Shown piece after piece: positions 55,507 to 59,170 of a stretch of DNA of 64,000 nt. The translations under genes were made by a program, and so were the position numbers. This DNA is from Hyphomicrobiaceae bacterium. GTDB lineage: Bacteria; Pseudomonadota; Alphaproteobacteria; Rhizobiales; Hyphomicrobiaceae. The notes beneath the pieces were generated by a model that was given only the letters and a program-made list of their open reading frames with translations, did no database searches and was not told the origin of the DNA. The stretch is from NCBI GenBank assembly GCA_033764055.1, contig JANRJI010000129.1:4574-68573 (forward strand), in the 5' to 3' direction. Position 1 is the first letter of the stretch; each line of letters starts with the position of its first letter.

Positions 55507-56493
55507 TCAGCGCTCCACGCCCAGCATCAGGCAAAGGTTCTGCACGGCGGCGCCGGCGGCGCCTTTGCCGAGATTGTCGAGGCGAGCGACCAGCACGGCT
55601 TGCCGGTGCTTCTCGCTCGCGAAGACGCGCAGCTCGAGCATGTCGGTATCGTTCAAAGCGAGGGCGTCGAGCCGGCCGCCCTTGGACGACGGGTCGTCGG
55701 CCTTGATCACCTTGACCAGCTTGCAGCCGGCGTAGTGCGCCGCGAGGCACGCTTCGAGGTCAAGGGCCGAAGGCTTGCCCGGCAGCGTGTCGAGGTGCAG
55801 TGGCACCGACACCAGCATGCCCTTGAAATAGTTGCCGACGGACGGTACGAAGATCGGCCGCCGCGTGAGGCCCGAGTACACCTGCAACTCGGGCACGTGC
55901 TTGTGCTCGAGGCCGAGACCGTAGAGCTCGAACAGCGGCGCCTTGCCCGTGTCATAGCTCTCGATCATCGACTTGCCGCCGCCGGAGTAGCCGGAGACGG
56001 CGTTCACGGTGATCGGGTAGTCGGCCGGCACCAGTCCGGCAGAGACCAGTGGCCGGACGAGCGCGATGCCGCCGGTCGGGTAGCATCCGGGGTTGGCGAC
56101 CCGCTTCGAGCCCTTGATGACGGCGGCCTGCGCCTTGTCCATCTCGGGGAAGCCGTAGGCCCAGCCGTCGGCGACGCGATGCGCGGTCGAGGCATCGACG
56201 ATCCGCGGGCTCTGCGTGCCGAGATGGTCGGCAAGTGCCGTCGCCTCCTTGGCAGCATCGTCGGGAAGGCAGAGCACGACGAGGTCGACGTCGGCCATCA
56301 GCGCCTGCCGGGCTTTCGGGTCCTTGCGCTTGGCGGGATCGATCGATCTCACGTCGACCATCGGCAATTTGGCCAGCCGCTCGCGGATCTCGAGACCGGT
56401 GGTGCCGGCCTCGCCATCGATGAAGACGGCAGGCTTGGTGCGATTGTGGCCGAGCGTGGAAGCGGCAGTTCCTGAGGCTGTCGTAGTCGTCAT
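55507..56493 (-). CDS. argC: N-acetyl-gamma-glutamyl-phosphate reductase (type 2 ArgC)
   Basis: ATG 56493 (MTTTTASGTAAS...KPAVFIDGEAGTTGLEIRERL...). Active-site context ANPGCYPTG. The upstream part of track ORF 55507..56607 crosses a terminator and is discounted. Confidence 0.9.
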   Translation of the reverse strand: MTTTTASGTAASTLGHNRTKPAVFIDGEAGTTGLEIRERLAKLPMVDVRSIDPAKRKDPKARQALMADVDLVVLCLPDDAAKEATALADHLGTQSPRIVDASTAHRVADGWAYGFPEMDKAQAAVIKGSKRVANPGCYPTGGIALVRPLVSAGLVPADYPITVNAVSGYSGGGKSMIESYDTGKAPLFELYGLGLEHKHVPELQVYSGLTRRPIFVPSVGNYFKGMLVSVPLHLDTLPGKPSALDLEACLAAHYAGCKLVKVIKADDPSSKGGRLDALALNDTDMLELRVFASEKHRQAVLVARLDNLGKGAAGAAVQNLCLMLGVER

Positions 56494-56549
56494 GGCTGGC
56501 TCCGGATCGGGTCGTGCAGGTAGGCTGAGAGGGGAGGCGAGGGGGCCGG

Positions 56550-56580
56550 AAAACAAAAAAGCCGCGCTCCTGGCGCGGCC
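56550..56580 (-). terminator. strong intrinsic terminator inside the argC 5' leader
   Basis: Minus strand GCCGCGC-CAGGA-GCGCGGC followed by TTTTTTGTTTT. Lies 57 nt upstream of the argC ATG, with no upstream minus-strand gene to terminate. Confidence 0.75.
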
Positions 56581-56610
56581 TCGGCGAGAACGGATGCGAT
56601 CAGGCAACCG

Positions 56611-56673
56611 TCATCGGATCCGCGCGCGGAGGCGGCTGCGACGTCGGCGGAGGCTGGTCGGCACGTGTGTCAT
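56611..56673 (-). other. candidate leader peptide ORF, 20 codons, Arg-rich (MTHVPTSLRRRRSRLRARIR)
   Basis: ATG 56673...TGA 56611. Eight Arg codons among the last 12. No SD, but the ATG lies 9 nt after a -10-like hexamer, so it may be leaderless. Arg-rich frames also arise by chance in GC-rich DNA. Confidence 0.25.
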
Positions 56674-56681
56674 GGCGGGAG

Positions 56682-56710
56682 CTTATGAGGCCCAAGGGTG
56701 CTCGTGTCAA
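56682..56710 (-). promoter_or_regulatory. sigma70-like promoter TTGACA-N17-CATAAG directed toward argC
   Basis: A perfect -35 hexamer (56710-56705) is rare in this GC-rich sequence. 17-nt spacer; -10 matches 4/6 (56687-56682). Confidence 0.4.
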
Positions 56711-56873
56711 CGGTTGCCTCCCTGGCGCATTGCCTCCTGGCGCAGGCACTGGCGGGACCGGCACGGCTCGGGCCGATGCAGCTTGCACTTGCAGGTGGAC
56801 CTGCACTCGATCCAGTATTCCGTCATCGAGCCCGCAAACGCATTGCAGGAAATGGGAATATCTGGGATTGCAC

Positions 56874-58052
56874 ATGAAAAACATCGCCATTCTATTCGAC
56901 GGAACCTGGAATACGTCGGATTCGCAGCACCCTTCGAATGTCGTCAAGACGGCCCAGCTGATCGCGCCGCGAAGCCCCGCCGACATCGAGCAGGTCATCT
57001 ATTATGACGCGGGTGTGGGCTCGGTCGACGTCGCGGTTGCCAGCAGCATCAACAACTGGCTCGGGGGCGCCTTCGGCTCGGGATTGATGGCCAATATCGA
57101 GGAGGCGTACCGCTTCCTCACCTTCAACTATGCGCCGGGCGACAACATATTCATTTTCGGCTTCTCGCGCGGTGCGTTCAGCGCCCGTTCTATGGGTGGG
57201 CTGATCCGGACGTGCGGAATTCTGCGCCGGGACAAGGTCGACCAGGTCAAGCGCGCGACGAGGCTCTACAAGAGCTGGTTGCCCGAGGACGATGCGGCCG
57301 TGAAGGTGGGCCAGACGAGGGCCGACCTCCCGCGTTTTGCGCAGTTTCGCGCCGAGAATGCTCTGCCCCTCGTGCCGCGGCGCGTCGGCCAGACCAGCCA
57401 GGGCGCGATGGCGGCTCCGGTGCTCTCCATCGCCTACATGGGGGTCTGGGATACGGTCGGCGCGCTCGGCGTTCCTGGAGGCTTCGGGCTCGCCAGCCTG
57501 TACAATCGCCGCTACCGGTTTCACGATCTCAACCTGTCGAGCATGGTCGCGAGCGCTCGCCACGCGCTCGCCATCGACGAGCGCCGCCGAACCTTCGAGG
57601 CCACCGTCTGGGACAATATCCCTGTGCTCAATGCGGACGCGATGAAGATCGATCCTATGTTGAGCAGCCCGCCCTATCTGCAGCAATGGTTTCCCGGCGA
57701 TCATGGCAGCGTCGGCGGCTCCGGCGACGTCAACGGCCATTGGCAGTCGTCGCTCGTCTGGGTGGTTGAAGGCGCCATGGAGCGGGGACTTGGCGTCGAT
57801 CACGCGTTGCTCGACGCCTACCGCAGGGATATCGACGTCACGGCGTCGCTCAACTGCATGACGTCCCCGACCTTCAACATTGCCAGCATCGCCGTGAGGC
57901 GATGGCGGAAAGGGCCCAAGGCGCGGGAGGTCGATGCCGTGTCAGAGCATGCGAAAGCCCGCATCCGCACGCCCCCCGACGAGCTCTACGAGAGGAAGCC
58001 CTATCGGCCGCCGCCCCTGAAAGAGGTGATTGCCGATCTTCTCAAGCTATAG
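56874..58052 (+). CDS. DUF2235 (Tle1-like alpha/beta hydrolase) domain protein
   Basis: ATG 56874 (MKNIAILFDGTWNTSDSQHPSNV...), the characteristic DGTWN start of DUF2235. Nucleophile elbow GFSRGA. The upstream part of track ORF 56667..58052 is discounted. Confidence 0.8.
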   Translation: MKNIAILFDGTWNTSDSQHPSNVVKTAQLIAPRSPADIEQVIYYDAGVGSVDVAVASSINNWLGGAFGSGLMANIEEAYRFLTFNYAPGDNIFIFGFSRGAFSARSMGGLIRTCGILRRDKVDQVKRATRLYKSWLPEDDAAVKVGQTRADLPRFAQFRAENALPLVPRRVGQTSQGAMAAPVLSIAYMGVWDTVGALGVPGGFGLASLYNRRYRFHDLNLSSMVASARHALAIDERRRTFEATVWDNIPVLNADAMKIDPMLSSPPYLQQWFPGDHGSVGGSGDVNGHWQSSLVWVVEGAMERGLGVDHALLDAYRRDIDVTASLNCMTSPTFNIASIAVRRWRKGPKAREVDAVSEHAKARIRTPPDELYERKPYRPPPLKEVIADLLKL

Positions 58053-58258
58053 TCCCGCCTGAAGGTGGTGTGGGCGGCTGTCGACGGTCGGCTCGTGGTG
58101 CAACGCGTCTTGCGCATTCGCCGAGCATGACGCCAACATGACGTGGCACTCGCGCTCCGGGCCGACATGTGGCAAGGGGACGGGGCCGCGGCCCGCGCGA
58201 AGCGAGGTCCAGCCACACGGCGGTCGTCTGTCGTGCCGCCAACTTTCCGGAGCCCCCG

Positions 58259-59170
58259 ATGGCCGACGAGATCCCGTTCCGCAAGGAGATGAACTTCGAG
58301 TACGGCGTGCCACGGGAGCTGATCCCGGGCCTCGTGCGCGTCGTTGCCAACAATCCGAGCCCATTCACGTTCAAGGGTACGAATACCTACATTCTGGGCC
58401 AGGGCCGCGACGTTGCCGTGCTCGATCCGGGACCGGAGGACGAGGCCCACTTCGAGGCCATCATGCGGGCTGTGAAGGGCAAGCGCGTCGCGGCGATCCT
58501 CGTCACGCACACCCATCGCGACCACGTCGATGGGCTCCCGCGCCTGAAGGCGGCCACCGGCGCGCCAACCTGGGGCTATGGCCGCAAGGCGCTCAATCCC
58601 GGAGTGGTCAAGAAGAGTCCCAATGGCGGCGAGTATACGGACGAGGACTTCGTGCCCGACCATCCGCTCGCCGACGGCGGCCGTTTCGAGGGCGAGGGCT
58701 ACGCGCTGACGGCGCTGCACACGCCGGGCCACGCGCCGGACCATCTCTGCTTCGCGATCGATGGCACGGGGGCGCTGCTCTCCGGTGATCACGTGATGGG
58801 ATGGAACACCAGCGTTGTGGCACCGCCCGAGGGCAACATGTTTGCCTACATGGCCTCGCTCGACAAGCTGATGGGGCGGGAGGACAAGGTCTTCTTCCCC
58901 GGTCACGGCGGCCGCATCGAGCAGCCGCAGCGCGTCGTGAAGGCCTTCATCGTGCACCGACGCATGCGTGAGCAGGCGATCCTCGATTGCATCCGCGGCG
59001 GCGCGACCACCATCACTGAGGTTGTTGCGAGCGTTTACCGCGGGCTTGATCCGCGCCTCGTGAAGGCTGCTTCACTTTCTGTGACGGCTCACGTTGAGAG
59101 CCTCGTAGAGCGCGGCCTTGTTGTTGTTTCTGGCCCGATCCTGCAGCCTGACCGGCTTTCCCCCGCTTAG
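58259..59170 (+). CDS. MBL-fold metallo-hydrolase
   Basis: ATG 58259 after GGAG. NTYILGQGRDVAVLDPGP, THTHRDHVDG, HTPGHAPDH. C-terminal helical (winged-helix-like) tail. Confidence 0.85.
   Translation: MADEIPFRKEMNFEYGVPRELIPGLVRVVANNPSPFTFKGTNTYILGQGRDVAVLDPGPEDEAHFEAIMRAVKGKRVAAILVTHTHRDHVDGLPRLKAATGAPTWGYGRKALNPGVVKKSPNGGEYTDEDFVPDHPLADGGRFEGEGYALTALHTPGHAPDHLCFAIDGTGALLSGDHVMGWNTSVVAPPEGNMFAYMASLDKLMGREDKVFFPGHGGRIEQPQRVVKAFIVHRRMREQAILDCIRGGATTITEVVASVYRGLDPRLVKAASLSVTAHVESLVERGLVVVSGPILQPDRLSPA

Follow-up and report, generated by a model that had tools for sequence, protein, structure and literature searches.

A conserved, putatively leaderless Arg-codon leader upstream of argC and argD-argF in Hyphomicrobiaceae and related Alphaproteobacteria: a candidate arginine attenuator

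We analyzed a 64,000-nucleotide (nt) stretch of DNA from a Hyphomicrobiaceae bacterium (contig JANRJI010000129.1, assembly GCA_033764055.1), called the window throughout, and within it the leader of the arginine-biosynthesis gene argC. On the minus strand, at 56710–56550, this leader carries four elements in order: a promoter, a short open reading frame (ORF) rich in Arg codons, a hairpin holding the stop codon of that ORF, and an intrinsic terminator. A first-pass annotation made from the letters of the window had placed them there, and they were found as described save for a slight shift of the hairpin. We consider it quite probable that the leader works as a leader-peptide attenuator, in which ribosomes gauge charged arginyl-tRNA and thereby set argC transcription, most likely as an arginine version of the classic trp/his attenuation switch; the basis of this reading is wholly computational. 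What is established here is how the leader is built and conserved, how it is linked to two arginine transcription units, and which pairings it can form.

The promoter was read directly from the minus strand as a –35 hexamer TTGACA (56705–56710), conserved in relatives, and a –10 hexamer CATAAG (56682–56687), which varies among them, with a spacer of 17 nt. The promoter scan of the window did not flag this CATAAG promoter because the scan demands T as the last base of the –10 hexamer, which here is G, and support for the promoter therefore comes from its conservation among relatives. The ATG at 56673 lies 8 nt from the –10 hexamer and opens the ORF MTHVPTSLRRRRSRLRARIR, which the ORF map confirms as 20 codons plus a TGA at 56613–56611 (56611–56673, minus strand), with 8 Arg within the last 12 codons. 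Codons 9–12, CGC CGA CGT CGC (56638–56649), are the putative regulatory Arg codons. They overlap region 1, CCGACGU (56647–56641), which can pair with region 2, GCGCGG (56620–56625), in a helix given by RNAalifold. Region 2 spans the Ala-Arg codons 17–18, is a copy of the terminator 3′ arm and would form the 5′ half of an antiterminator, whose stem has the stop-codon hairpin (56585–56616) as its inner part. The arms of this hairpin are CGAUGACGG (56616–56608, holding the UGA) and CCGUUCUCG (56593–56585), so that the hairpin itself stands while its first-pass limits of 56622–56591 have moved. The terminator at 56580–56550, GGCCGCGC-CAGGA-GCGCGGC followed by TTTTTTGTTTT, was called a textbook example from the start, and the terminator scan agrees with 10 pairs, 7 of them G-C. 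Its 5′ arm GGCCGCGC (56573–56580, also predicted by RNAalifold) is region 3, its 3′ arm GCGCGGC (56561–56567) is region 4, with outer pairs that covary (A-U to G-C and G-C to A-U), and its U tract TTTTTTGTTTT occupies 56550–56560.

Downstream of the U tract, a C-rich spacer of 56 nt (56494–56549; 31 C vs 11 G), in which the promoter scan found no promoter-like site and which holds GGAG at 56503–56500, leads to the argC start codon at 56493. The proposed regulated gene (55507–56493, minus strand) encodes N-acetyl-gamma-glutamyl-phosphate reductase, its product matching TIGR01851 at 406.5 bits against a cutoff of 229.85, and is monocistronic in the window because ftsH lies convergent downstream. 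The window has no upstream minus-strand gene that the terminator could serve, as the first-pass annotation had also observed.

The full architecture of promoter, 5′ ATG, short ORF and terminator was found once in the 64-kb window, and a covariance model of the leader found no second copy there, a single 16.9-bit match sitting in a coding region. Rfam scans of the window, and of an 800-nt region at a permissive E-value, returned no family at its gathering score, the best sub-threshold matches being unrelated. One such match lies on the opposite strand at 56669–56772 (+), where the c-di-GMP-II-GAG riboswitch model scores 22.6 bits (E = 0.09), its gathering score being 40, and many of the pairs are non-canonical; it was judged to be chance. 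The window sequence by itself cannot show more than chance; the comparative data do.

A scan with the ArgC protein, at one genome per species, returned 80 loci, and all parts of the leader are present upstream of argC in 20 other genomes, which belong to Hyphomicrobiaceae and related alphaproteobacterial metagenome-assembled genomes (MAGs). Among these, ArgC is 70–91% identical to that of the window in loci L001–L019, and 63–91% when L076 is included. In the 19 closest loci the unit comprises promoter, ATG, ORF, stop-codon hairpin, a GCCGCGC...GCGCGGC terminator with its U tract, and a spacer of 20–91 nt to argC. The window and L001–L019 form the 20 tabulated argC-type sequences, and the covariance model built from them found one further member before argC, L076. 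This locus and six argD-type loci described below were added later, their promoters being read by eye, so that the full set of 27 leaders consists of the window, 20 argC-type and 6 argD-type loci. A promoter of the form TTGAC(A/C/T)-N17/18-CATAxx, with –10 variants such as CATAAG, CATATA, CATAAA and CATATG, is seen in 20/20 tabulated sequences and likewise in the seven added. At all 27 loci the leader is on the same strand as, and directly upstream of, an arginine gene, in two different operons. Among the argC-type loci the gene on its far side varies (rpsI with its own terminator in L011 and L018, and genes for MBL-fold and TerC-like proteins, among others), which indicates that the element travels with argC. 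The leader is not present in the more distant genomes examined, from Hyphomicrobium, Methylobacterium and Acetobacteraceae. Thus the comparative check suggested for Arg-codon attenuation of argC came out in its favor, with ORF, Arg run and terminator all conserved.

In genomes without the leader, the model of the argC leaders weakly matches, at 14–23 bits, the 3′ end of rpsI (…KARRSFQFSKR-stop) together with its terminator, directly upstream of argC. These matches (L023 1953–2063, L050 2790–2904, L046 2833–2943, L020 2018–2149) align stop codon to stop codon. The leader may have arisen when the rpsI tail and its terminator were duplicated; alternatively, composition and the terminator could by themselves account for the match.

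The second arginine operon came from a metagenome scan with the pattern CGACG-N11-24-GCGG-NNN-CGATRANGG-N20-45-CCGC. Among the 80 matches listed, 79 were chance and L151 alone was real (45.6 bits): its leader peptide, MTISVRQTRRLRIGPAARLR, precedes the acetylornithine transaminase gene argD (622.8 bits to NF002325, cutoff 372), followed by hslO. A search for ArgD homologues yielded five further contigs, each with gcrA, leader and argD-argF-hslO in order, and a homologous leader precedes argD, argF and hslO in 6/6 of the metagenomic or MAG loci examined (argD assigned by NF002325, argF by PF02729/PF00185). The six argD-type leaders score 41.7–51.3 bits with a covariance model trained on argC leaders only. 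Their U tracts end ∼25–30 nt before the start codon, a gap that leaves no space for a separate promoter, so argD-argF would be transcribed only from the leader promoter by read-through. The presence of one leader family ahead of two different arginine units is the strongest argument for arginine as the signal.

Several features of the 27 leaders suggest that the ORF is translated. The ATG lies 6–8 nt past the –10 hexamer in 27/27 (20 tabulated, 7 by eye), that is, at the presumed 5′ end of the transcript, so the mRNA would be leaderless; this would explain the missing Shine-Dalgarno sequence, for which a leaderless ORF had been postulated at first pass. The ORF has 18–21 codons and ends in TGA or TAA in 27/27. 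Indels measure 3, 6 or 9 nt within the ORF vs 1–2 nt past the stop codon, and the first 7–8 residues are unconstrained, differing even between closely related leaders (MTHVPTSL, MNHLTTSL, MRHMLNSL, MRSLPTIL). TAA has replaced TGA as the stop codon in L001 and L012, and L016, lacking the usual TGA, has gained one two codons upstream; in L009 the last codon has changed synonymously from CGA to CGC. Each peptide contains 4–9 Arg, with at least two consecutive Arg codons in 27/27 and at least three in 21/27.

The conserved features of the ORF are a CGA-CGN(-CGN) run, a GCG-CGG segment and a CGA-stop end. CGA is the first conserved codon of the run in 27/27 and CGT the second in 21/27, each of which makes up ∼10% of Arg codons in the ORFs of the window, and the region 2 codon is CGG in 27/27 (genomic usage ∼25%), preceded by GCG in 21/27. 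Synonymous sites are therefore frozen where the pairing model requires it (CGA, CGG). A DNA-binding palindrome, CGACGTCG, was considered as a repressor operator and rejected, as it is lost in L016–L019 and L076 (CGACGAC, CGACGCC) with the codons retained. A separate observation concerns the 11 nt after the leader stop codon (56610–56600 in the window, CGGTTGCCTGA; alignment columns 67–77; consensus CGGCUGCCUGA), which are conserved beyond apparent pairing need and hold a UGA in the –1 frame that could stop frameshifted ribosomes.

At the level of RNA, the leaders share four nearly invariant segments: region 1 CCGACGU, region 2 GCGCGG, region 3 CCGCGC and region 4 GCGCGG. Region 2, at the Ala-Arg codons 6–9 nt before the stop codon, duplicates region 4 and is therefore able to compete for region 3 as an antiterminator. 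This pairing of GCGCGG with CCGCGC, which the first-pass annotation had offered as a weak possibility, turns out to be among the most conserved features of the element, and is possible in 96.7% of alignment cells. RNAalifold also predicts the 1:2 helix between columns 27–33 and 52–57 (CCGaCGU:GCGcGG; 96.7% of cells paired) and the terminator, which carries compensatory changes at 2–3 pairs, the outer ones. We modeled a stalled ribosome on the second conserved Arg codon by masking 12 nt 3′ of the first base of the A-site codon. In this state, region 2 pairs with region 3 around the inner stop-codon hairpin in 20/20 argC-type leaders, with a mean of –24.5 kcal/mol for the antiterminator vs –15.8 kcal/mol for the terminator; with the ribosome modeled at the stop codon, the terminator forms in 20/20. 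The seven added leaders (L076 and the argD-type) show the same region 2:3 fold, and the argD-type ones agree with the argC-type in both modeled states. The partner of region 3 lies within the footprint of a ribosome at the stop codon in 19/20 leaders, vs 36% of dinucleotide shuffles. The inner hairpin is present in every leader with differing sequences, and when the antiterminator segment of all 27 was treated with MAFFT and RNAalifold these hairpins failed to align, giving no formal covariation count.

Taken together, these features are consistent with the following scheme. Transcription from a sigma-70-type promoter would begin with the A of the ATG at 56673 or a base adjacent to it, and the 5′ AUG would be bound by a ribosome directly. 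With ample arginine, this ribosome would pass CGC-CGA-CGU-CGC and reach the UGA at 56613–56611, where its footprint would cover region 2 and the stop-codon helix. With region 2 masked, region 3 would pair with region 4, the terminator would form, and a ∼120-nt transcript would be released at the U tract (56560–56550). When Arg-tRNA is scarce, the ribosome would stall on codons 10–12 with its leading edge short of region 2, so that region 2 and the stop-codon hairpin would pair with region 3 (∼ –25 vs ∼ –16 kcal/mol for the terminator) and the polymerase would read into argC. If the leader is not translated at all, region 1 would pair with region 2 and the terminator would form again. The dependence of read-through on arginine, like each functional step of this scheme, is something that we infer; the direction of regulation would be physiologically sensible.

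A number of points weigh against the attenuator reading, beginning with the fact that all of its evidence is computational. The single-sequence fold of the window leader is no better than shuffled sequence (z = –1.27). The margin of the antiterminator energy over shuffles is no more than ∼1.3 sd, and in RNA as rich in G+C as this, region 3 is also sequestered in 47% of trials when the upstream sequence is shuffled. Covariation speaks neither for nor against the 1:2 and 2:3 helices, which hardly vary, and minimum-free-energy folding gives the 1:2 hairpin in 10/20 argC-type leaders, the others pairing region 2 with a different upstream segment. Arg codons also occur 3′ of the run (codons 14, 16, 18 and 20), where a stall would favor termination, and the Arg run of the argD-type leaders is short (R-R-L-R). 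Finally, the 20 argC-type and 6 argD-type sequences are kin, so that counts such as 27/27 overstate the independent observations, and MAGs or metagenome contigs are the source of every window-type member.

One could instead suppose that the leader peptide itself senses free arginine, in the manner of TnaC, SpeFL or the arginine attenuator peptide of fungi: the signal would then be not tRNA shortage but arginine, which with the conserved C-terminal A-R-x-R-stop would halt the ribosome on reaching the stop codon and fix the RNA in the terminator state. The regulation would run in the same direction as in classical attenuation, the end (A/P)-R-(hydrophobic)-R-stop is conserved in both subfamilies, and 25/27 leaders have CGA as their final sense codon. 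However, this segment is conserved at the nucleotide level including its synonymous sites (GCG CGG xxx CGA UGA), for which RNA pairing suffices, and L016 and L009 alter the peptide end. Since the tandem Arg run, the most conserved coding feature, would also be left without a role, we regard a nascent-peptide sensor as very unlikely.

An alternative raised with the first-pass annotation is that the gap encodes an independent trans-acting small RNA (sRNA) of ∼125 nt or a small dual-function mRNA, argC having its own promoter and the adjacency being merely synteny. A complete promoter and a strong terminator would indeed give a ∼120-nt RNA, attenuator RNAs can act in trans, as rnTrpL does, and the leader shows a weak, sub-threshold resemblance to the model of the Hfq-binding sRNA isrK (16.1 bits vs a gathering score of 50). 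Against this stand the same-strand position directly before an arginine gene at every one of the 27 loci and in two operons, the conserved coding frame, and the lack of room for a separate promoter: the argD-type gap is only ∼25–30 nt, and the argC-type spacers of 20–91 nt include that of the window with no promoter-like site. An sRNA independent of argC is thus very unlikely, and a trans role on top of attenuation, as for rnTrpL, is possible by analogy.

The terminator might also be controlled by RNA alone, as a riboswitch or the target of an RNA-binding protein, with the ORF incidental. The high conservation of the nucleotide core (CCGACGU, GCGCGG, CGAUGACGGCUGCCUGA) would suit such a switch, as would that of the post-stop stretch CGGCUGCCUGA beyond apparent pairing need. 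But the window, argD-type and Bradyrhizobium loci give no Rfam match, and no aptamer-like covarying helices or consensus were found, the terminator alone covarying. In addition, the sequence of the 5′ third varies while its frame and length class do not, an invariant start codon stands at the predicted 5′ end of the transcript, and the stop codon is kept through a TGA/TAA swap and a relocation, all of which leaves an RNA-only switch with very little probability. Least credible is a chance Arg-rich frame beside a constitutive terminator or insulator, for although such frames are common at 67% G+C, and RRR-containing short ORFs occur in other argC upstream regions on the forward and reverse strands alike (13 vs 12), these background ORFs come without promoter, 5′ ATG and terminator, the full architecture occurs once in 64 kb, and conservation in 26 other loci answers the caution on this point voiced at first pass.

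Beyond the 27 leaders, a generic scan for RRR short ORFs at 61 more distant argC loci stayed at background level, and only L076, L022 and possibly L075 looked real. L022, from a Bradyrhizobium MAG, is a weak match to the model (18.3 bits; 18.2 with filters off). The unit there reads TTGACC-N17-TTATAG-N9-ATG, encodes a peptide MINAATILFARRRRR..AVWAVDRV, and continues with a hairpin and a U/C-rich tail; ∼100 nt farther downstream comes a paiB-like gene (PF04299), which overlaps argC. This unit, unannotated, is also present in Bradyrhizobium manausense, B. liaoningense, Bradyrhizobium sp. ORS 86 and B. iriomotense (L206 1657–1780, L207 1658–1781, L208 1665–1785 and L209 1645–1768, besides L022 2140–2263). 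These leaders follow the same three-state folding logic as the argC-type ones, and they and the argD-type loci have no Rfam match at gathering score. The five-sequence Bradyrhizobium alignment is too uniform for covariation. An MBL-fold divergent neighbor, shared with several Hyphomicrobiaceae loci, suggests a homologous locus. The tail, unlike a clean U tract, is U/C-rich, and termination may accordingly be weak or proceed differently. We treat the Bradyrhizobium paiB-argC leader as a probable distant relative rather than a proven member of the family.

A broader proposal would be that arginine biosynthesis in Hyphomicrobiales, cultured Bradyrhizobium among them, is controlled pathway-wide by leaderless Arg-codon attenuators (argC, argD-argF and possibly other genes), in the role that ArgR has in enterobacteria, and that the ∼120-nt RNA released when arginine suffices and/or the Arg-rich peptide act in trans like rnTrpL/peTrpL. 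The CGA codons at the stall site and just before the stop could in that case be a kinetic device, given slow decoding by inosine-containing tRNA-Arg. This proposal is speculative and on balance unlikely. Separately, argC of L075, a Stellaceae MAG locus, is preceded by two short ORFs with Arg runs, one after the other (2631–2744 and 2788–2898), MTFATNSHGLGHRCHNRRRRDFCRGRRRRRLLAMALA and MLPVSLRTERFRRRSNGG…, the second with a TTGACG-N16-TTAGCC-N8-ATG start and a terminator after it. This may be a separate or very remote form of the Arg-leader idea.

The surroundings of the leader offer some further observations. In the window the divergent gene, with its ATG at 56874 (+), encodes a PF09994 (formerly DUF2235, Tle1-like) protein (56874–58052, +) and stands between the leader and an MBL-fold hydrolase gene (58169–59170, +). 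In L002, L004–L006, L008 and Bradyrhizobium the MBL-fold gene is the direct divergent neighbor of the leader, which suggests that the PF09994 gene was inserted in the window. ArgC and ArgD of leader-bearing genomes carry an N-terminal low-complexity extension of 18–34 residues, rich in Ser, Thr, Ala and Lys and poor in Arg (MTTTTASGTAASTLGHNRTK… and MSTSPISASKPSAKSKATSKAK…, for example; window 56493–56425, L001–L019, and the gene starts of L151 and L201–L205). ArgC of genomes without the leader starts just 4–13 residues before the FIDGE motif. The terminator–argC spacers of the window and L001–L019 average 46% C vs 23% G, a C-rich, G-poor composition that resembles Rho-utilization sites, so that Rho might act as a second control point for read-through transcripts that are not translated.

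In textbooks, arginine biosynthesis exemplifies repressor control, by ArgR/AhrC. To our knowledge, arginine is not among the amino acids whose genes are attenuated through leader peptides (trp, his, leu, thr, ilv, phe), and we know of little that explains how the scattered arg genes of most Alphaproteobacteria are regulated. If the attenuator reading is true, it would extend a classic mechanism to a new amino acid and supply a further example of attenuation on a leaderless mRNA. The covariance model would give annotators a means to find an element that is currently unannotated, and the probable relative before paiB-argC in cultured Bradyrhizobium makes the idea directly testable at the bench. 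An arginine-biosynthesis attenuator of this type was not found in Rfam 15 or in the open full-text literature, subscription-only papers being outside reach; a literature search aimed at Bradyrhizobium likewise gave no earlier description. In a comparative survey of 2005, arginine was regulated at the RNA level solely by T-boxes (PMC1262725).

Like the enterobacterial trpL, hisL, leuL, thrL, pheL and ilvL leaders (Rfam Trp, His, Leu and Thr leaders), the element has a short ORF with tandem codons for the end product directly before biosynthetic genes, and four segments that could form a 1:2 helix, a 2:3 antiterminator and a 3:4 terminator, among which the position of the ribosome would choose the outcome. 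It differs from them in its amino acid, arginine, in its predicted leaderless mRNA lacking a Shine-Dalgarno sequence, and in having no sequence or model similarity to them. In the speF leader of Salmonella, Arg codons of the leader ORF orf34 are reported to link (PMC6386406) arginine supply to alternative mRNA conformations, though speF belongs to polyamine synthesis and not to arginine biosynthesis, and the architecture and organism group are different. The polycysteine leaderless short ORFs of mycobacteria (bioRxiv 10.1101/834739) likewise stand at the 5′ end of operon mRNAs, where runs of codons for one amino acid reportedly make expression respond to that amino acid; phylum and amino acid differ, and the leader described here has a canonical intrinsic terminator with a predicted competing antiterminator. 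The trpL/rnTrpL leader of Sinorhizobium meliloti is an alphaproteobacterial attenuator and leaderless, as ours is predicted to be, with an RNA of ∼110 nt ending at an intrinsic terminator before a single biosynthetic gene (PMC10117765, PMC12612679). That leader has Trp codons and controls trpE(G), and for it trans functions of both the RNA, rnTrpL, and the peptide, peTrpL, have been demonstrated.

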